DNA of 64,000 nt from a virus (IMGVR_UViG_3300032007_000018:136445-200444); one strand, 5' to 3'; shown: positions 4,134-58,062, counted from the stretch's first letter. Notes: a model not told the origin generated them from the sequence alone. Program-made: numbers and translations.

Positions 4134-4288
4134 CCCGTACTAGCTCAACCGGCCAGAGCATCCGACTTGCCGGTATAGTGTAACGGTAGCACGAAGGATG
4201 CCCCTCGTAATCTGGGGAGGAGTAAGTTCAATTCTTACTATCGGCGCCAATAATCGGAAGGTTCCTGGTTCAATCCCAGGGTGCGGGA
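4134..4288 (+). tRNA. split tRNA gene: 5' half (acceptor, D-arm, 5' anticodon stem) and 3' half (3' anticodon stem, variable loop, T-arm, acceptor, CCA) separated by an about 81-nt insert in the anticodon loop; the spliced loop would be cuUAUaa (Ile/AUA) if the insert is excised exactly
   Basis: CCCGTAC...GTGCGGG pair perfectly; TCCGA/TCGGA anticodon stem halves at 4161-65 and 4254-58; D-arm GCTC...GAGC; T-arm CCTGG-TTCAATC-CCAGG. Confidence 0.45.
4169..4246 (+). tRNA. tRNA-like element nested inside the anticodon loop of the 4134-4288 tRNA; its own anticodon region is 28 nt (CCCC/GGGG stem with 9-nt loop ucguaaucu)
   Basis: acceptor GCCGGTA/TATCGGC, D-loop GTGTAACGGTAGCAC, T-arm GTAAG-TTCAATT-CTTAC, discriminator G, CCA. 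Confidence 0.4.
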
Positions 4289-4322
4289 CCAGATAAAGAC
4301 ACACGCAGCAATCTTACTTAAA

Positions 4323-4393
4323 AAGTATATTAGTCTAATGGTTGGACGCAAATCTTGAAAATTTGAATAGTAGGTTCGATTCCTACATACGCT
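4323..4393 (+). tRNA. class-I (short variable arm) tRNA with anticodon UGA (Ser codon UCA); identity unclear
   Basis: anticodon stem CAAAT/ATTTG loop cuUGAaa; T-arm GTAGG-TTCGATT-CCTAC; acceptor has one A-C mismatch and a U3-G70 pair. Confidence 0.4.
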
Positions 4394-4409
4394 TTTGAGG
4401 TGTCTTGCT

Positions 4410-4592
4410 ATGAAAATCTTAAAAATCGGAAAAAGATATGAGTGGCCGGTAACAATTCCATTTGACGGAAGAAAGAAAAGCGGTTTGTTTACTGGTAAGT
4501 ATAAAGAGAATGGCAATGCAATTCTTATAACCAAGGACGGTCAAAGATGGAGCGTTCCTCCTGAGAATTGTTACTTGGTTAAAAAGAAGTAA
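4410..4592 (+). CDS. hypothetical small protein (60 aa)
   Basis: ATG after GAGGTG; ends TAA. Confidence 0.4.
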   Translation: MKILKIGKRYEWPVTIPFDGRKKSGLFTGKYKENGNAILITKDGQRWSVPPENCYLVKKK

Positions 4593-4593
4593 T

Positions 4594-4648
4594 TTGACAT
4601 TTATAAAAAAATTTTATATAATATATATAGAAAATAAAGATAAGGAGA
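4594..4648 (+). promoter_or_regulatory. promoter repeat copy (TTGACA -35, 17 nt, TATAAT, AAGGAG)
   Basis: consensus-spaced -35/-10 and SD. Confidence 0.6.
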
Positions 4649-4652
4649 AACA

Positions 4653-4826
4653 ATGGAAGATTGTAAATACAAAAAGCTTTTCCCGCTTACCAACAAAATA
4701 CATTGTTTTTCCTACTGCAAATCCAAAAGAAAAGATGGATTACACTGGGCTCATTATCCCTATTGCGAGGATAATGCGTGTCCTTTGAAACATCCTGAGC
4801 TTCTGGAGGGTGCAGAACTTCAGTAA
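4653..4826 (+). CDS. hypothetical Cys-rich small protein (57 aa)
   Basis: ATG 6 nt after AAGGAG; C-x-x-C pairs; ends TAA. Confidence 0.4.
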   Translation: MEDCKYKKLFPLTNKIHCFSYCKSKRKDGLHWAHYPYCEDNACPLKHPELLEGAELQ

Positions 4827-4829
4827 TAT

Positions 4830-4903
4830 GCGCGCTTAGCTCAGCTGGTTAGAGCACCACGTTTACACCGTGGGGGTCGGGGGTCCGAATCCCTCAGTGC
4901 GCA
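4830..4903 (+). tRNA. tRNA-Val (TAC)
   Basis: stem CCACG/CGTGG loop uuUACac; acceptor GCGCGCT/AGTGCGC; CCA. Confidence 0.7.
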
Positions 4904-4909
4904 CCATCA

Positions 4910-5335
4910 GTAATAGCTTAAAATTAGACCCTTAAGAGCGACCCGTGCGCAGGGGAAATGGTGAGAGAGAGGTTCACCTTACTGAGCCAGGCCAAGTATG
5001 CTACTGCTGAAAAATCGCGAGTAAGGCTTCGGGGATGCTTGGTGGTCGAGCCCCAGAAAAAAGACCACCCCAGGCGAGTGAGAGGATAACCGGTGCATAA
5101 CGGAAAAAGCCCCTAACATAAGCTCACTCAGTAAGAATAAGTATTTTGAGACGCATACAGCAATCATTATCAAGTCACTTGAAAATGATTTTTAGGGTAA
5201 AATATTGGTTCTACCGATGTGGTGTGGAAATCCACACTACCCCACCCGAAGTCCTTTGGTTGTGGACAGCTTCTGCTTCGGTTAGGTTTGATTAAAGCAT
5301 AGTCCTCTGTGTCTCGGAGCATTTAAGAGAGGTAC
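4910..5335 (+). ncRNA. candidate structured non-coding RNA (ORF-free, GC-richer, many local helices)
   Basis: no ORF over 65 aa; begins with ACAGCAAUC motif at 5158; multiple GGUUC/GAACC-type hairpins. Confidence 0.25.
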
Positions 5336-5336
5336 A

Positions 5337-5807
5337 ATGTTAAAAATATACACAAGCTATTTTTATCAAGTTCGATTTATGAAACCCCATATGGTGCCTC
5401 TTTCTACTGCGTGCTTTGACCCTCGCTGGTTTCATCAGAATAAAGGGCAAGATTTTGTTTGGAAAGATAAAAATGGTGTGTATAATGGTTTGCGCGCGCC
5501 GGTGTTTGCGCCCGGTCCTCTCTGTGAGAATCTATGTCGCGGGCCAGAAACCTGCGTAACGCGAGATCCGCAAACTTGTCTTTTTCTAAATACCTATCGG
5601 TATCAACTTGACCAACTTGATTTCAATGATGTAGTTGCTCGCTGTGAGCGTTTGGGCAAATATGTTCAATCATTAGAGCACTTCGCCGAAGAACCTGTGA
5701 TAATGCTCCTTGTTCACGAGGCGCCTCAGAATCCCTGCTCCGAGCGTCGTGTCATCCAGGAATGGTTCGCCGCAAACGGAAAGGAAGTAGTAGAATGGCA
5801 GAAATAA
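5337..5807 (+). CDS. hypothetical protein
   Basis: 156-aa ORF; start could be internal (ATG 5386). Confidence 0.4.
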   Translation: MLKIYTSYFYQVRFMKPHMVPLSTACFDPRWFHQNKGQDFVWKDKNGVYNGLRAPVFAPGPLCENLCRGPETCVTRDPQTCLFLNTYRYQLDQLDFNDVVARCERLGKYVQSLEHFAEEPVIMLLVHEAPQNPCSERRVIQEWFAANGKEVVEWQK

Positions 5808-6034
5808 CTTTACATTATACTCCAGAGGAATTGAAAGTTCTTTTAGATGCTTTGAATCACGGATGTGTTGCTCTTGGGAAAGTATATGCCGGCGCACGTC
5901 TTGGATGTGAAATTCCTGCCGAATTTGAGGCTAAATTTAAATCAATGACTTTTGAGGAAATTAACGAATATACGCGCTTTCGATTTAATAGTTTGCGTGA
6001 GTTGTATGAGTATCTTTTAACCTTTGAAGAATAA
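5795..6034 (+). CDS. hypothetical protein
   Basis: ATG after GGAAGGAAG; ends TAA. Confidence 0.45.
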   Translation: MAEITLHYTPEELKVLLDALNHGCVALGKVYAGARLGCEIPAEFEAKFKSMTFEEINEYTRFRFNSLRELYEYLLTFEE

Positions 6035-6081
6035 ATGCGGGTGTCGTATAACGGCTATTATACCTGGTTTCCACCCAGGAG

Positions 6082-6318
6082 ATGTGGTTTCAACTACCAT
6101 CACTCGCTCCAAAAATGAGGTATCATATGTATAGTTGTCCTATATGTAACAGAATATTTGAATCTGAAGAGGGTGTTGCGAAACACTCTTTGAAGTGTTG
6201 GAAAGAACAGAATCCTTATCATCAATCTAAGCCTGCTCCTCGTAGCGACGATATTGTTGAGCGAGAAGTAAGTGATGATGTTCTTAACTTTTTTGCGTCT
6301 TTCCAGAGAGGGAATTAA
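6082..6318 (+). CDS. hypothetical C2H2-like zinc-finger protein
   Basis: CPIC...H...C motif; ends TAA. Confidence 0.4.
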   Translation: MWFQLPSLAPKMRYHMYSCPICNRIFESEEGVAKHSLKCWKEQNPYHQSKPAPRSDDIVEREVSDDVLNFFASFQRGN

Positions 6319-6320
6319 CT

Positions 6321-6671
6321 ATGCAAGAAGTAATGGTAAAAACCCATCTTATTGTGACTGATGTTCACGAAGAATATAAAGTTGAATGGTGTGGTAAAAT
6401 CGCCAATACAAAACCTTTATTGCAGAATTGTATGCCAGTATTCGTGATTATTGGTTCAGAAGAGCGCGTAGAAATCAATACTATTGACATAAGATATGTA
6501 GAAGATTACGCAAAACGCCTTACGCATCCACGCGGTAGACAGGCTGTGACTACAGATATTTCACGTATTTATCTGATGCAAGAAGATCGCTCATTGGCGT
6601 TTATGGGTAAAGTTACTCACAATCATGTGAAACAATATCAGCAGATGTATGATCCTGTAAACAAGATATAA
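6321..6671 (+). CDS. hypothetical protein
   Basis: ATG 4 nt after upstream stop; 116 aa; ends TAA. Confidence 0.5.
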   Translation: MQEVMVKTHLIVTDVHEEYKVEWCGKIANTKPLLQNCMPVFVIIGSEERVEINTIDIRYVEDYAKRLTHPRGRQAVTTDISRIYLMQEDRSLAFMGKVTHNHVKQYQQMYDPVNKI

Positions 6672-6745
6672 AGATTTCCCTTTGATTTTTATAAAAAAAT
6701 ATATTATAATATATATGTAAGATAAAGAAAGGGGAAATATAAAAA

Positions 6746-6937
6746 ATGTTCGATGATTTTGACACCCAAATTCATAGCGATGAAGTTATCCCCGAAGAGT
6801 ATGAGGACTGGCTGCGTTTCTGCGCCAGAGCTTATGAAGAAGCCGAATATGAAAAATATGATCACTTCGAGGAGGATGAAGATGACTGCTTTGAGCCTGG
6901 TCGCCCTTTCGTTTCCATGTTTGAACTGAATCCTTAA
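6746..6937 (+). CDS. hypothetical acidic small protein
   Basis: follows promoter repeat copy at 6682; ends TAA. Confidence 0.45.
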   Translation: MFDDFDTQIHSDEVIPEEYEDWLRFCARAYEEAEYEKYDHFEEDEDDCFEPGRPFVSMFELNP

Positions 6938-7039
6938 ACAAAAGAACTTCCCATTGATTTTTTAAAAAAAATAATATATAATATATATGTAAGATAAAGA
7001 AAGGGAAAAAACCAAGATAGAAAATTGGACTTGGCAATA

Positions 7040-8260
7040 AGACCATCACCCAAGTAAAATCTTACATTGAACATCAGATGTGAAACTCGCCGTCCTTAGA
7101 CAAGACGTAAAATCCCTATGACTCACACGGAGCCTGTCCGCGAGTACTGAAGGGCTCTTGATGTTCAATATCGGCGGTAAAGCAGACAAATTGGAGCCAA
7201 TCGAATGCCGCCACTCCTTATACAATATCGCTCCCCATTAATATATAACTGCGCGGGGGACTTGGACAGCCGTAAAGGAAATCCTGAGTAGTTTCGTATG
7301 GCACAACGAAAGGGTTGGTATCGACAGATGACGCGCAAAGAGGTTAGGAGTTGCAAACGCTTCCCTCTATAATCTAAAGCGTATAGTTTATGGGGGATGG
7401 GACTGCATAGAGTGGTCATCTGTCTTGCACACAGAAAATCAGACGGGGGCGGTACCCGTATCCTCCACCAGCCGGTTCGTTTAGTGCGTTTCCTTACCGT
7501 TAAGAAGTGAAAGCTGAAGGCGATCTCCACGGAGGCGCACCGTGCTCGCCAAAAACGACGTCGTGTTTACTGCGGAAATGCGGGTTCGAGCCCCGTCCGC
7601 GCTCGTCCAGGAAGTGGGCGCGGTAGTTTCAATGGGTAAAACGCCCAGTAAATGAGTCCCGCACAGCTTACAGCCTCCACGTGGCGCGGGATGGGTAATG
7701 CTAATTGTAAGTGATTATTTCAACTCCGGCGTATAAAGGCGCCTGTCCTAGTAGCAGGTCTCACCGGCGGCAGTTCGTTTTGAAGTCATTCCTGTCGTTA
7801 TGAAGCGGTGGCCACCGTGAGGATATGATGGAGGGTTCCGGTCTCGAGAAAAGCTCGACCAACAGAGAGTATGTAATGTGCCGGTCATTACAGAACCTTC
7901 ATTTCGCACCCGTCTATGAAGTAAAACAAAGAGATTATAACGGGGTATGATGGATAATGTGCTTGGTCAATTACCTGCCCAATGTACCAGTCCATTGAAT
8001 GATGAATGAGGTGCGATTCCTCTGCACCATACAAGATGCTGTGCGGAATAGCGGTAAGGAAAACCGTTCTTGTATGGGTAAGGCGCCCTAGTGGGCGGGA
8101 TCTAAGGGCACACGTAGAGTTCCACGACAGTCGAACATCTCTTCCTTGGCGGGTTTGCGGTCAGCCCATAAAACCGCTCCGTATATGGCTCCGAGGGAAA
8201 ACGGGTTGATCCGCCAGCCTGTCTTGGATACTTACAAGGTATGTCTTTGGAAAAGGGATT
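7040..8260 (+). ncRNA. candidate large structured ncRNA (about 1.2 kb, ORF-poor, GC-rich relative to genome), GOLLD/ROOL-like by context or an intron remnant
   Basis: only short spurious ORFs; follows promoter repeat at 6954; lies inside the tRNA region; many GC-rich helices. Confidence 0.3.
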
Positions 8261-8267
8261 GGTGAAA

Positions 8268-8406
8268 AATGGAATTAAATCCTTCTCAAATAGGACAAGT
8301 AACAGAACTCAAATGCCAAACTTGGTTGATAGAGCATGGCTGGAATGTTCTTTTACCAGTTGGAAACTCTCAATATGCTGACGTAGCCCAATTGGCAGGA
8401 GGCACA
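8268..8406 (+). pseudogene. 5' remnant of a small nuclease gene (paralogue of 10660-11064) truncated where a tRNA gene begins
   Basis: MELNPSQIGQVTELKCQTWLIEHGWNVLLPVGNSQYAD resembles the N-terminus of ORF 10660-11064 and runs straight into the tRNA at 8377. Confidence 0.3.
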
Positions 8407-8451
8407 TGACTTAGGATCATGACAGTAAGAGTTCGAGTCTCTTCGTCAGTA
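8377..8451 (+). tRNA. class-I (short variable arm) tRNA with anticodon UAG (Leu codon CUA), A73, CCA
   Basis: stem CATGA/TCATG loop cuUAGga; T-arm AAGAG-TTCGAGT-CTCTT. Confidence 0.45.
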
Positions 8452-8668
8452 CCAAAAAGGTTGACTGCGCCTTTTGTCAAAAGCAAGTCTAAGCCTGTGA
8501 GCCAGGTCGATGGGAACCCTATAACACTCGTTAGGTGGGAAGGTGGCTTGGGAGTGCGATATGTAACTCCACTCGGGCACGCGAGGGGTCGGCTACGCGC
8601 ACTGGGCGCTAAAAGGGGTGACAGCCACCAGTTTTATATGCGGGTTTGATGTAAGAGGGAGCATAGTG

Positions 8669-8718
8669 GCTGGCTGAATCCCAGCCGCAGGTATGGGTTC
8701 GATCCCCATAGCCGGCAG
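8669..8718 (+). ncRNA. tRNA-like minihelix (acceptor plus T-arm, no D/anticodon arms, no CCA)
   Basis: GCTGGCT...ATGGG-TTCGATC-CCCAT-AGCCGGC. Confidence 0.3.
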
Positions 8719-51256: not shown

Positions 51257-52447
51257 ATGAGCGAACGTTCTTTGGCTCACGTAGAGCAAATTGTGGATAT
51301 TCAGCCCATCCCCGATGCAGATAAGATCGAGGTTGCCACTGTTCTCGGCTGGAGAGTTGTAATCGCTAAGGCTGATAATTTTCAGGTTGGCGATAAGGTC
51401 GTTTATATCGAGATCGATAGCAAAGTCCCTGAGCGTCCGGAGTTCGAGTTCCTCCGCGATCGCAAGTTCCGTGTTCGCACAATCAAGTTGCGCGGCCAGT
51501 ATTCTCAGGGATTGATCTTGCCTATCTCTATTCTCAAGAATAAGAACTACGAGATCGGTGAGGATGTAACCAAGGAACTCGGCATCACTTACTACGTCCA
51601 AGAGGATAATATTCGTAAGGCAAATAAGATTCCTGCGTCTGTAAAGTACCAGTCTATGGCTATGCGGCATAAGAATCTTTTCAAGCATCAGCCTTTCCGC
51701 TGGTTGATGAAGAGAAACTGGGGCCGTAAGATGCTATTTATCTTCTTCGGTAAGAAGAAGGATAAGCCGAAGGCGTTTCCTACCAAGTTCGCTTTCGTCC
51801 ATAAGACCGACGAAACTCGTATTGAGGCTCTACCTTGGCTGCTCGGTTATGATAAGCCGCTTATCGTAACTGAGAAACTCGATGGAACCAGTTCTACTTA
51901 TATTCTCGAGCGTACTAAGAGAAATAAGTATGAGTTCTGGGTCACTTCTCGTAATGTGCGGCAGTTGAAGGACGATCAAAACTGCTACCACGACTACAAT
52001 ATCTATTGGGCTATGGCTAAGAAGTATGATATAGAGAAGTATCTGCGCGAGTACCTTGAGGCTAACCTTGACCTCGAGTATGTCTGCCTACAGGGCGAGA
52101 GCGTTGGTAGCGTTCAGGGTAATCCTCTGAAACTCGCTGAGGACGATCTCTATATTTTCAACTTCATCGACTCCAAGCAGGGCCGTATCTCTTCTATCGT
52201 AGGCAAGGAGATTGTCGAGAAGTGGGGCATGAAGTGGGTTCCTATCCTTGACACCAACTTCATTATGCCAAAGGATATGGAGGAGTTCAAGGTTATGGCA
52301 ACTGCCAAGTCCGTAGTGAATCCTAAGGTTCTGCGTGAGGGTATTGTCCTGCGTGATCCTACCTGCGATTTGAGTTTCAAGAATGTCTCCAGAGAGTTCT
52401 TGATGAAGCATCAAGATGATCTTGTTGAGGAGGCTCAAAATGAGTAA
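51257..52447 (+). CDS. ATP-dependent RNA ligase with N-terminal OB/tRNA-binding-like domain (Rnl5/DraRnl-NgrRnl-like)
   Basis: motif I TEKLDGTSS (KxDG); N-terminus DIQPIPDADKIEVATV resembles the EMAP/Myf OB fold; 396 aa, TAG-free. Confidence 0.6.
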   Translation: MSERSLAHVEQIVDIQPIPDADKIEVATVLGWRVVIAKADNFQVGDKVVYIEIDSKVPERPEFEFLRDRKFRVRTIKLRGQYSQGLILPISILKNKNYEIGEDVTKELGITYYVQEDNIRKANKIPASVKYQSMAMRHKNLFKHQPFRWLMKRNWGRKMLFIFFGKKKDKPKAFPTKFAFVHKTDETRIEALPWLLGYDKPLIVTEKLDGTSSTYILERTKRNKYEFWVTSRNVRQLKDDQNCYHDYNIYWAMAKKYDIEKYLREYLEANLDLEYVCLQGESVGSVQGNPLKLAEDDLYIFNFIDSKQGRISSIVGKEIVEKWGMKWVPILDTNFIMPKDMEEFKVMATAKSVVNPKVLREGIVLRDPTCDLSFKNVSREFLMKHQDDLVEEAQNE

Positions 52448-56598: not shown

Positions 56599-58062
56599 AT
56601 GTTAAGTGCTATTTTGCCGTACCTTCCGTTCATTCTGATTGCCATTGTGGTAATCGCCGTTCTCTGTAGTGGTTATGTTAAGGCTCCGCCTGATATGGCC
56701 TACATCATTTCCGGTCTCCATAAAAAGCCAAGAATTTTGATTGGTAAGGCCGGCATTAAAGTACCTTTCTTCGAGCGAATTGATAAGCTCTCTCTTGGCG
56801 CAATTCAGATTGATGTTAAGACTGGTTCCGCCGTTCCTACCGCAGAGTATATCAACGTGAGAGTTGACTCCACAGTCTCCGTGCGCGTGGGCCGTACCGA
56901 TGAAATGATTGCGCTGGCTGCACAGAACTTCCTCAATGTGGGACGAGATGAAATTGCGCGAAAGATTAACGACCTCCTGGAAGGTAATATCCGTGAAATC
57001 GTCGGCCAGATGAAGCTGACCGAAATGATTGGCGACCGCAAGAGTTTCTCTGAAAAGGTGCAGGAGAACGCTGTTCCCGACCTTGCCAGATATGGTCTTG
57101 AACTGATTACCTTCAACGTGCAGAACTTCGTTGATGACAACGATGTTATCACCAACCTGGGTATTGACAACGTGGCGCAGATTTCCAAGAACGCTGCCAT
57201 CGCCCGTTCCAATGCGGAGCGTGAGGTTGAGGTCGCCAAGGCCGAGAACGCAAAGCAGGCAAATGACGCTAAAGTCAAGGCTGCTGAGGAAATCGCCAAG
57301 AGAAACAACGACCTCGCCATTCGCCAGGCTGAACTCCAGAAGGCTGCGGATACCGAGAAGGCTCGTGCTGAAGCGGCCAAGAGCATTGAGGCCGAGAATC
57401 AGCGTAAGCTGAAGGACGTTGCCGAGACCGAGGCCAACATCGCCAAGGCTGCCAAGGAAGCTGAACTGCGCCAGAAGGAAGTTGAGCTGAAAGAGTATGA
57501 GCTGACTGCGCTCGTGCGCAAGCAGGCTGATGCTGACAAGTACGCTCAGGAGAAGGCCGCTGAAGCGAAGATGATTCAACAGCAGAGAGAGGCTGAAGCT
57601 CGCGCTTACGAGCAGGTGAAGAAGTCTGAGGCTGCGAAGCGTGCGACCGAGCTTGAAGCGGAAGCACGTAAGTTGCAGGCAGATGCTGATAAGTATGCGG
57701 CGATGGCTGAGGCGGAAGCTATTCGCGCGAAGGGCGAAGCCGAAGCTGAAGCAATTCGTATGAAGGGTGAAGCTGAAGCTATCGGTATTGAAAAGAAGGC
57801 CGAAGCTCAGAAGAAGATGTCTGATGCATCTGTGATTGAAATGGTAATGAATGCATTGCCAAAAATTGCAGAAAATGTTGCGGCTCCTCTTGCAAATGTA
57901 GATAAAATCACAATGTATGGAGAGGGCGGTTCTACTAAACTTGTTGGCGATATTATTACCAACACGAGCCAGATTTTTGAAGGAGTTAAAGAATCTACTG
58001 GATTAGATTTGAATACTCTTCTTGCTGGATATCTTGGTGGCAAAGCCGTAGATAAAACTTAA
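56599..58062 (+). CDS. flotillin-like SPFH/band-7 protein with EA-rich coiled coil
   Basis: N-terminal TM; SPFH core; long AEAKAEAEA-rich region. Confidence 0.6.
   Translation: MLSAILPYLPFILIAIVVIAVLCSGYVKAPPDMAYIISGLHKKPRILIGKAGIKVPFFERIDKLSLGAIQIDVKTGSAVPTAEYINVRVDSTVSVRVGRTDEMIALAAQNFLNVGRDEIARKINDLLEGNIREIVGQMKLTEMIGDRKSFSEKVQENAVPDLARYGLELITFNVQNFVDDNDVITNLGIDNVAQISKNAAIARSNAEREVEVAKAENAKQANDAKVKAAEEIAKRNNDLAIRQAELQKAADTEKARAEAAKSIEAENQRKLKDVAETEANIAKAAKEAELRQKEVELKEYELTALVRKQADADKYAQEKAAEAKMIQQQREAEARAYEQVKKSEAAKRATELEAEARKLQADADKYAAMAEAEAIRAKGEAEAEAIRMKGEAEAIGIEKKAEAQKKMSDASVIEMVMNALPKIAENVAAPLANVDKITMYGEGGSTKLVGDIITNTSQIFEGVKESTGLDLNTLLAGYLGGKAVDKT

Follow-up and report, generated by a model that had tools for sequence, protein, structure and literature searches.

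Leucine tRNAs with short variable arms and a probable Y-like RNA in the tRNA array of a large phage

1. The tRNA Array and Three Genes with Short Variable Loops

The DNA analyzed here, referred to as the window, is a stretch of 64,000 nucleotides (nt) from the viral contig IMGVR_UViG_3300032007_000018 (136445-200444). It is part of a large phage genome, and no close relative of it at the DNA level was found among 50,697 phage records. The window contains an array of 33 tRNA genes predicted by ARAGORN between positions 2724 and 22003, all of them on the + strand, of which 29 reach the gathering score of the Rfam tRNA model. An encoded CCA end is present in nearly all array tRNAs and is missing from the gene at 4323-4395, the element at 8639-8718, and the tRNA-Met at 9723-9795. 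Three members of the array, in which Ser or Leu triplets are borne by bodies with short variable loops, are the subject of this work:

4323-4395, + strand: AT-rich cloverleaf without CCA, 33% GC, UGA at 4356-4358, 4-nt variable loop, U at position 73; probable tRNA-like module of a Y-like RNA
8377-8454, + strand: type I tRNA-Leu(UAG), anticodon at 8412-8414, G1.U72, A73, CCA, variable loop ACAGT, D arm GUAGCCCAAUUGGCAGGAGGC; called by ARAGORN and by Rfam (56.9 bits)
9050-9127, + strand: type I tRNA-Leu(CAA), paralogue of the 8377 gene, anticodon at 9085-9087, T loop UCCGAAU, A73, CCA; Rfam 49.1 bits

ARAGORN predicts the first as a tRNA(tga) of 73 nt, the second as a tRNA(tag) of 78 nt including CCA, and the third as a tRNA(caa), the last two with 5-nt variable loops. 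The Rfam tRNA model (RF00005, gathering score 29) scores 54.1 bits at 4324-4394, with the matches to the two other genes covering 8377-8451 and 9050-9124, and the E values of the three genes range from 1e-7 to 1e-9 over the whole window. In the Rfam alignment, 4324-4394 opens with the pairs A1-U72, G2-C71, and U3.G70, followed by an A4xC69 mismatch, and continues with a 4-bp D stem, the loop CUUGAAA (U33, UGA, A37), the variable loop AAUA, and the T loop UUCGAUU, whereas 8377-8451 has the loop CUUAGGA and ends in A73 and CCA. A long variable arm, taken as a stem-loop of more than 10 nt, is present in none of the three genes, whose variable loops measure 4-5 nt; true class II genes for Leu(GAG), Leu(UAA), and Ser(GGA) lie elsewhere in the window.

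An initial annotation of this DNA had described the UGA and UAG genes as class I bodies carrying class II anticodons, with A73 in the latter and U73 plus a U3.G70 pair in the former, and the cloverleafs and numbering given by ARAGORN and Rfam agree with this description. Its concern that the fold could be wrong can be laid aside, as both programs concur, and a check for alternative registers left no other triplet at positions 34-36 in either gene. The 9050 gene is a paralogue of the 8377 gene, as had been noticed. The 9-nt anticodon loop containing UCA that was attributed to it can be drawn because of the mismatches A27xA43 and A31xC39 in its anticodon stem, but this is the less likely register: in the canonical 7-nt register the loop reads UUCAAAA and the anticodon is CAA (Leu), the register of its family (CAA in 15 of the 120 members listed, Section 2), and the UCA reading was dropped.

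2. Short-Arm Leucine tRNAs

The genes at 8377-8454 and 9050-9127 are true leucine tRNAs, new members of the type I (short-arm) tRNA-Leu family, which is known and widespread, if little noticed. A blastn search with 8377-8454 found homologues of 76-91% identity in 202 phage records, among them Vibrio phage KVP40, Cronobacter phage CR9, and phages of Mycobacterium, Streptomyces, Gordonia, and Rhodococcus, and every annotated match listed is labeled as a tRNA-Leu of 75-78 nt. The same length was obtained for six phage homologues that were fetched and refolded, all of them with the D arm GUAGCCCAAUUGGCAGGAGGC, a variable loop NCAGU, and A73, most of them with G1.U72, and with the anticodons UAG or CAG.

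The family extends to bacteria. A pattern that fixed only the D arm, U33, and the CAG of the variable loop, and allowed any triplet at positions 34-36, was scanned over one genome per prokaryotic species and matched at least 120 bacterial genomes; the matches listed belong mainly to Actinomycetota, with some from Acidobacteriota, Planctomycetota, Alphaproteobacteria, and other groups. All 120 listed matches are 74-80 nt long and all carry Leu anticodons (UAG 85, CAA 15, CAG 15, GAG 3, UAA 1, AAG 1), about half being solitary chromosomal genes and the remainder lying in dense tRNA arrays. The 116 distinct sequences among them keep 98.9% of their stem cells paired, with abundant compensatory change and many pair types per position. 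Moreover, at positions outside the search pattern, A73 and U8 occur in 116 of 116 sequences and U48 in 115 of 116.

In E. coli, the identity elements for leucyl-tRNA synthetase (LeuRS) are A73, A15-U48, G18G19, and A20a, and the long arm is not required (PMC9976931). The determinants A73, U8:A14, A15:U48, and G18G19 are all found in both the 8377 and the 9050 gene, which also share a variable loop of the N-C-A-G-Y type (ACAGU) and combine a Leu anticodon (NAG or YAA) with a short-arm body. Because these determinants are complete, leucylation by the host LeuRS is to be expected: the enzyme would read A73 and the elbow formed by the D and T arms, where the other three determinants lie, and not a long variable arm, and the two tRNAs would then serve the normal decoding of CUN and UUG codons. 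It may be speculated that the loss of the arm also makes them insensitive to defense nucleases that cut the variable arms of class II tRNAs.

A precedent exists in S. coelicolor, whose type I tRNA-Leu(CAA), with the variable loop ACAGC, is leucylated in vitro by its own LeuRS (Fan et al. 2019, NAR 47:6369, PMC6614811). The window genes resemble it in the 5-nt ACAGY loop, the Leu anticodon, and A73, as well as in the coexistence of short-arm and class II tRNA-Leu genes in one genome, and their type of D arm also occurs in Streptomyces, Micromonospora, and other genomes among the matches listed; this link is drawn from the shared loop motif and the Streptomyces matches, not from the published sequence of that tRNA. 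Unlike it, the window genes are phage-encoded with an encoded CCA, and the 8377 gene has the anticodon UAG and G1.U72. No difference in kind separates them from the short tRNA-Leu genes of KVP40, CR9, Bixzunavirus mycobacteriophages, and phages of Streptomyces, Gordonia, and Rhodococcus, which have the same D arm, variable loop, and A73 and frequently G1.U72, and whose records label them tRNA-Leu without comment on the missing arm. Leu and Ser anticodons also stand on bodies with short variable loops in animal mitochondria, with which there is, however, no evolutionary link; mitochondrial LeuRS still uses A73 and A14 (PMC9976931).

The gene order of related phages gives a further argument. After tRNA-Asp(GUC), in the slot of the 78-nt Leu(UAG) of the window, these relatives have a class II gene of 83-86 nt with the same anticodon, and the next slot, Leu(CAA), is occupied by a gene of either 77 nt or 85-86 nt. 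Class II and short forms thus interchange in the same slots with the same anticodons, which argues for functional equivalence. Two points call for caution. Firstly, the Streptomyces type I tRNA-Leu was not charged when E. coli LeuRS was used (PMC6614811), so that charging depends on the host enzyme, and leucylation in this phage would hinge on the LeuRS of its own host. In Streptomyces it is the leucine-specific domain of LeuRS that decides whether the type I form is charged. Secondly, the 9050 gene, with its weak 3-bp anticodon stem, may be decaying.

The Asp slot itself shows a trace of rearrangement. Positions 8187-8223 hold the 5' 37 nt of a tRNA-Asp(GUC), ending exactly past the anticodon, and no intact Asp tRNA is called by ARAGORN in the window. 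This truncation coincides with the swap from class II to type I Leu(UAG), as the window has unrelated sequence plus the type I gene in the place where the relatives carry the 3' half of the Asp gene and their class II Leu(UAG). The tRNA arrays of the related loci L281, L286, L287, and L288 contain multiple interspersed homing-endonuclease genes of the GIY-YIG and PD-(D/E)XK types, and it is plausible that homing endonucleases drive the replacement of tRNA genes slot by slot.

According to another early suggestion, the three genes would be mischarging or recoding tRNAs that insert a noncognate amino acid at UCA, CUA, or UUG, or that read through UGA by means of the 9-nt loop. The UAG and CAA genes are no such oddities, since they belong to a conserved family in which the association of body and anticodon is perfect in all listed matches, A73 is invariant, and the LeuRS determinants are kept. 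Moreover, UCA, CUA, and UUG are ordinary codons in the long open reading frames (ORFs) of the window (5.3, 5.9, and 7.3 per 1000, respectively), so that mistranslation would be costly, and the UGA triplet is not kept in orthologues (Section 3). The suggestion can appeal to U73 and A36 of the UGA element, which are partial determinants for cysteinyl-tRNA synthetase (CysRS), and to two Gln-like CUA suppressor tRNAs of the phage, which suggest that recoding occurs in this lineage. Nevertheless, a recoding role of the three genes found no support in the analysis and is very improbable. The CUA (amber suppressor) tRNAs themselves, at 19380-19455 and 19664-19738, have Gln-like acceptor ends with G73 and suggest that TAG is recoded to Gln at some place in the genome; a simple ORF-length test of TAG, TGA, or TAA reassignment in the window cannot discriminate, since removing any stop codon lengthens the ORFs.

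3. The UGA Element and Its Orthologues

The element at 4323-4395 behaves differently. It has no blastn match among the 50,697 phage records, and exact and degenerate DNA patterns derived from it matched only two sister contigs in viral and metagenome contigs. Syntenic loci were fetched via the neighboring ORF 5337-5807; those fetched via the Cys-rich protein encoded at 22033-23169 came mostly from unrelated phages and did not include the sister contig. The orthologues occupy a slot between tRNA-Ile(GAU), or a nested tRNA, and tRNA-Val(UAC), and their 5' halves are near-identical (AAGUAUAUUAGUCCAnUGGUAGGACGCAA). The triplet at positions 34-36 is, in contrast, not conserved, with six forms in the related contigs examined (UGA, GCA, UUU, GGU, UUG, and UUC), while the anticodons of neighboring slots, such as Tyr, Ile, and Val, in the same genomes are unchanged wherever the genes are present.

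The syntenic gene of a sister contig is called tRNA-Cys(GCA) and shares 82% identity with the window element, five of the six changed stem pairs still being paired. The combination of U73 and GCA that marks bacterial tRNA-Cys is absent from the element itself, which has U at 73 and the triplet UGA; GCA is confined to the orthologues in L007, L284, L287, and L288. A Cys-inserting tRNA charged by CysRS was considered for the UGA gene and rejected, because recognition by CysRS depends to a large degree on the anticodon and because GCA is not the ancestral state for the family as a whole. A T-box inducer was likewise rejected, since neither the fixed U at position 73 nor the large number of non-GNN triplets agrees with that role.

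The acceptor end is also peculiar. A 7-bp stem can be drawn, with the A4xC69 mismatch, and a CCA could be added post-transcriptionally. However, "U73" and the two following U residues can pair with an upstream AAA, so that the helix extends through the would-be discriminator to 10-11 bp.

4. A Closing Stem Around the UGA Element

The cloverleaf is enclosed by a second helix, the closing stem, whose two strands lie outside the predicted tRNA:

4296-4312, + strand: 5' strand of the closing stem: AAGACAC at 4296-4302 and, after a spacer of 3 nt, the conserved CAGCAAU at 4306-4312
4400-4407, + strand: 3' strand of the closing stem, GUGUCUU followed by a conserved G

In the window this stem reads AAGACAC…CAGCAAT…GTGTCTTG. 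All orthologues have the 5' flank AAGACNN-NNN-CAGCAAU-(10-14 nt)-AAAAG and the 3' flank CUUUU-(1-5 nt)-NNGUCUUG, and the NN positions of the stem covary between contigs (CAC/GUG, CGG/CCG, CGC/GCG, UAC/GUA, CAG/CUG, and GGCAC/GUGCC). In an alignment of 11 sequences, the closing stem is 100% paired, with three of its seven pairs changed on both sides. When the 10-11-bp acceptor-like helix and the D, anticodon (AC), and T arms are included, 95.8% of positions are paired and 14 pairs show double changes; none of 500 shuffles was as good, and slid controls reached 36-54% paired.

This alignment bears on the idea that the UGA element is a decaying tRNA-Cys pseudogene, redundant with the canonical tRNA-Cys at 21929-22003. 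The presence of this second Cys tRNA, the combination of GCA with U73 in the nearest orthologues, and the A4xC69 mismatch and U21 of the window copy would suit such a history. However, compensatory changes keep all helices paired in the 11 aligned sequences, the flanking stem and the CAGCAA motif are conserved, and both GCA copies are retained in the sister phage, which makes decay highly unlikely.

The closing stem recurs throughout the clade. The motif AAGRYNN-N3-CHGCAA, with its complement within 330 nt, is found six times in the window, with four more divergent copies, and, in 1.43 Mb of loci obtained via homologues of the ORF at 24075-25619 (Section 5), 160 times on the + strand and not once on the - strand; it does not occur in 0.9 Mb of bacterial DNA. 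A cloverleaf callable by ARAGORN is enclosed by 19 of 155 distinct motif elements, and about 60 others contain a GUUCRA T loop without a cloverleaf call. The 19 stem-enclosed cloverleafs are uniformly AT-rich (26-44% GC), have acceptor-like stems of 5-9 bp, never encode CCA, and display at least 12 different triplets, including ACA, AUA, and GUA, whereas in these loci CCA is encoded by 81% of the ordinary tRNAs, those with a GC content of 40% or more. Position A34 is rare in bacteria outside Arg(ACG). In these related loci, A34 appears in the ACA and AUA triplets of the AT-rich elements, and also in Thr(AGU) and class II Ser(AGA) genes of L261 and L244/L258/L260 that seem ordinary.

These data allow the most serious objection to be weighed, namely that the UGA element is a processed elongator tRNA on a generic AT-rich scaffold, whose anticodon is swapped by lineage to replace a host tRNA destroyed by defense systems, the closing stem being a leader for precursor processing or stabilization. 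The canonical cloverleaf with its 54 bits and the retention of U33 and, mostly, A37/A38 while 34-36 vary would accord with decoding, and the class II Ser(UGA) of a sister phage is not in the window. Furthermore, an RNA ligase and a Thg1-like enzyme are encoded in the window, phage tRNAs are known to rescue translation from tRNA-targeting defenses (PMC13096335), and the YrlA RNA of M. smegmatis is itself cut by RNase P and then receives CCA (PMC4201824). The family features speak against it: the acceptor-like helix varies from 5 to 9 bp with a paired would-be discriminator, CCA is encoded in none of the 19 members, the triplets include ACA, AUA, and UUA, some loops are noncanonical (e.g., C37), and the sister phage has a canonical tRNA-Cys(GCA) besides its GCA copy. 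Charging is a further difficulty. Bacterial seryl-tRNA synthetase (SerRS) ignores the anticodon and requires the long variable arm, which leaves the UGA form without an obvious or known bacterial charging route. Mitochondrial SerRS co-evolved to recognize armless tRNA-Ser, and we know of nothing comparable among bacteria. An elongator role is thus unlikely, if worth keeping in mind.

Further closing-stem elements in the window lack a tRNA-like insert or depart from the common form:

9231-9286, + strand: closing-stem element without tRNA-like insert, directly upstream of tRNA-Glu
19460-19528, 19585-19650, 19784-19875, and 20997-21067: further insert-less closing-stem elements
5148-5315: variant closing-stem element

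AT-rich promoter repeats resembling sigma-70 promoters (TTGAC…TATAAT) occur around positions 4597, 6690, 6960, 9180, and 19530 and in the related loci, often preceding, within about 25 nt, a closing-stem element and then a tRNA. From this order of promoter, closing stem, and tRNA, the Y-like closing-stem RNAs appear to be leaders of tRNA transcripts. Two functions considered for the stem itself were dropped, as it is too short at 7 bp for an RNase III site and has no Rfam match to a known self-cleaving ribozyme.

5. A YrlA-Like RNA and a Ro60-Like Protein

Two other features of the window connect the closing stem to Y RNAs:

14802-14914, + strand: YrlA-like Y RNA (Rfam RF02553), stem AAGGCAC…GUGCCUU around a permuted tRNA-like domain
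24075-25619, + strand: Ro60-like protein, Pfam DUF2828 plus DUF7788/von Willebrand factor A (vWA) domains; phrog_850 "RNA-binding protein"

The first covers all model positions (1-114 of 114) of RF02553 with 36.4 bits, which lies below the gathering score of 69 (E 6e-5 for 14 kb of sequence, 6.7e-7 for 156 nt). In the alignment, the AAGGCAC/GUGCCUU stem falls on the terminal stem of YrlA, and the order of the domains (V, T arm, closed acceptor stem, D arm) is the permuted one, V-T-AS-D. The second feature was modeled with AlphaFold2 (AF2) at a mean confidence (pLDDT) of 74, and the eight best Foldseek matches of the model in the Protein Data Bank (PDB) are all Ro60/Rsr proteins, including the Ro60 of Thermus phage phiLo (E 2e-6 to 1.4e-3, probability 1.00); the alignments are full length, but the TM-scores are just 0.40-0.44. 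A sequence search of this DUF2828 protein against the PDB did not reach Ro60, the fold search alone doing so, and a literature search on DUF2828/TROVE returned nothing useful. By this fold match, a counterpart of Ro60 (TROVE plus vWA) is present in the same genome as the closing-stem RNAs.

Y RNAs with tRNA-like domains near Ro60 genes are established in bacteria and phages, phage TROVE proteins with tRNA-like RNA partners have been described, and Yrn1 of D. radiodurans has an unpermuted arm order (PMC4201824; PMC7824862). The RNA at 4296-4407 resembles the bacterial and phage Y RNAs (YrlA, RF02553; Yrn1) and their Ro60/Rsr partners (Chen et al. 2014, PMC4201824) in several ways: its ends form a stem with a conserved motif in the 5' strand, here the covarying AAGACAC/GUGUCUU with CAGCAAU, one of its domains is tRNA-like and includes D and T arms, its genome also encodes a protein with the Ro60 fold, and several paralogous RNAs occur per genome. 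As in Yrn1, the arms follow the order D, AC, T, and the Ro stem takes the place of the acceptor. Unlike Y RNAs, it has a complete cloverleaf with an acceptor helix of 7 bp or more and an anticodon loop of the canonical 7 nt, its sequence is AT-rich and matches no Y-RNA model of Rfam, its conserved motif is AAGAC…CAGCAA instead of GNCGAAN0-1G, and the window protein is of the DUF2828 type and not annotated as TROVE.

6. Interpretation of the UGA Element

Taken together, the three genes are probably best described in two parts, with the 8377 and 9050 genes as type I tRNA-Leu and the 4323 element as the module of a Y-like RNA, a reading that we favor without regarding it as secure. The stretch 4296-4407 is most likely a Y-like RNA with an unpermuted tRNA-like module and a partner of the Ro60-like protein. 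Accordingly worded as a model, the cloverleaf at 4323-4395 would be the tRNA-shaped effector module of an RNA of about 110 nt, whose ends would form the conserved covarying stem with the CAGCAA motif, as in Y RNAs, and the Ro60-like protein would bind this RNA within a ribonucleoprotein of RNA quality control or repair. The triplet at 34-36 would not be used in decoding, UGA being incidental, and would for this reason drift freely among sister phages. The Y-like reading is the simplest single explanation of these observations: it tells why CCA is missing, why the GC content is low and the helix length variable, and why the "discriminator" is paired. It also accounts for the turnover of the triplet, which is close to the neutral expectation at 18% divergence, and for the shared closing stem and the Ro60-fold gene. 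The UGA element is therefore best seen as not a serine tRNA, but as a module misread as tRNA-Ser by tRNA finders; a Ser tRNA that has merely lost its arm is difficult to reconcile with six triplets among orthologues, the lack of CCA, and a Y-RNA-type closing stem around the gene.

Several observations weigh against the Y-like reading. A scan of 4280-4425 gave no YrlA or Y RNA match to 4296-4407 at E values up to 10, and the arm order of this RNA is that of a normal tRNA, not the permuted order of YrlA. The three AAA/UUU extension pairs are invariant and thus provide no covariation evidence. The element reaches 54 bits with the tRNA model, and U33 and A37/A38 are retained in its loop, so that RNase P, RNase Z, and the CCA-adding enzyme could release a chargeable tRNA from it, as with M. 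smegmatis YrlA. Finally, the binding of the stem by the Ro60-like protein is suggested by their co-occurrence only, and the gene for this protein lies 20 kb from the element.

The initial annotation had also raised the possibility of decoys. The UGA element and its relatives would then bait host anticodon nucleases or other tRNA-binding defense proteins, the triplet being tuned to the attacked tRNA. The concentration of variation at 34-36 in a tRNA-like loop, with triplets that differ between close relatives, the RNA-repair context (RNA ligase, Thg1-like enzyme, and Ro60-like protein), and the decoy or supplement role suggested for a phage tRNA-Tyr (PMC13096335) are in its favor. However, the variation at 34-36 is about what neutral drift would produce at the divergence given above, and positions 32 and 37 vary too in several members. 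A decoy function is improbable as an explanation of its own, and it is compatible with the Y-like reading, not exclusive of it.

As a bolder variant, and a long shot, the stem-enclosed AT-rich cloverleafs could represent a new phage class of Y RNA with a "programmable" anticodon arm, whose triplet would target the Ro60-like ribonucleoprotein to a particular partner, for example one of the host's anticodon nucleases, a synthetase, or a tRNA species that has been damaged. Such a ribonucleoprotein might act with the RNA ligase, the Thg1-like enzyme, and a vault-like protein with Major Vault Protein (MVP) domains. If this were true, the turnover of the triplet would be the signature of an arms race and not of drift.

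Genes for candidates of this kind are present. The ORF at 41212-43626 encodes 804 amino acids with MVP shoulder and repeat domains (Pfam E 1e-20 and 2e-9), and its occurrence in the same genome as a Ro60/TROVE-like protein makes a vault-like or TROVE-associated phage assembly conceivable. A Thg1-like 3'-5' polymerase is encoded at 18152-18988, an RNA ligase at 51257-52447, and an SPFH/flotillin-like protein at 56599-58062, and together they make up an RNA-repair toolkit adjoining the tRNA array.

7. Other Unusual tRNA-Like Features of the Array

Several further elements of the array depart from ordinary tRNA genes. At 4134-4291, a tRNA-Ile(UAU)-like gene (acceptor CCCGUAC/GUGCGGG-A-CCA, loop CUU|AUAA) is interrupted between positions 34 and 35 by an 81-nt insert, itself a complete tRNA-like unit that has a CCA (4169-4249, Rfam tRNA 41 bits); processing of the inner unit would split the outer tRNA, of which an uninterrupted orthologue exists in L222 (119-196). 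A tRNA-Ala(UGC)-like gene at 7393-7470 (GGGGGAU…AUCCUCC-A-CCA, G3.U70, loop CUUGCAC) is called by neither ARAGORN nor Rfam and has the noncanonical T loop GGCGGUA; the T loop of its L222 orthologue is normal. Otherwise canonical tRNAs at 4830-4906, 9050-9127, 12274-12349, and 21094-21170 have C for U at T-loop position 55 (UCCGAAU or UCCAAAU).

A second conserved slot without CCA, GC-rich and tRNA-like, is found at 8639-8718 and in L007 (13071-13144), L281 (10227), and L286 (10612), with the acceptor UGCGGGUU/AACCGGCA. Its "anticodon" loop is different or noncanonical in every relative, and it is called Phe, Ser, Thr, or "???". Its surroundings are GC-rich blocks free of ORFs (7000-8270 and 8455-9050), which may hold further structured RNAs. 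A weak YrlA match is located at 7579-7642, and subthreshold matches (24-31 bits) to the HDV-like ribozyme of F. prausnitzii at 7656-7712 and 9795-9848. The latter is directly 3' of the CCA-less tRNA-Met 9723-9795, the same placement as described for theta ribozymes in gut phages (PMC10879173).

8. Significance

The armless tRNA-Leu family, present in about 200 genomes of phages with very different hosts and in at least 120 bacterial genomes and always carrying Leu anticodons, offers a natural test of arm-independent recognition by LeuRS. Nucleases such as Septu or retron-Eco7 cut the variable arm, and one may further ask whether class II tRNAs that lack it escape them. The UGA element, in turn, is best seen as a new variation on the Y RNA theme and serves as a warning for annotation, since tRNA finders label such Y-like RNA modules as tRNA-Ser, Cys, Lys, Thr, and others. 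With a Ro60-like protein and about ten closing-stem RNAs per tRNA array, this phage clade constitutes a rich system in which to study the roles of Y RNAs during infection.

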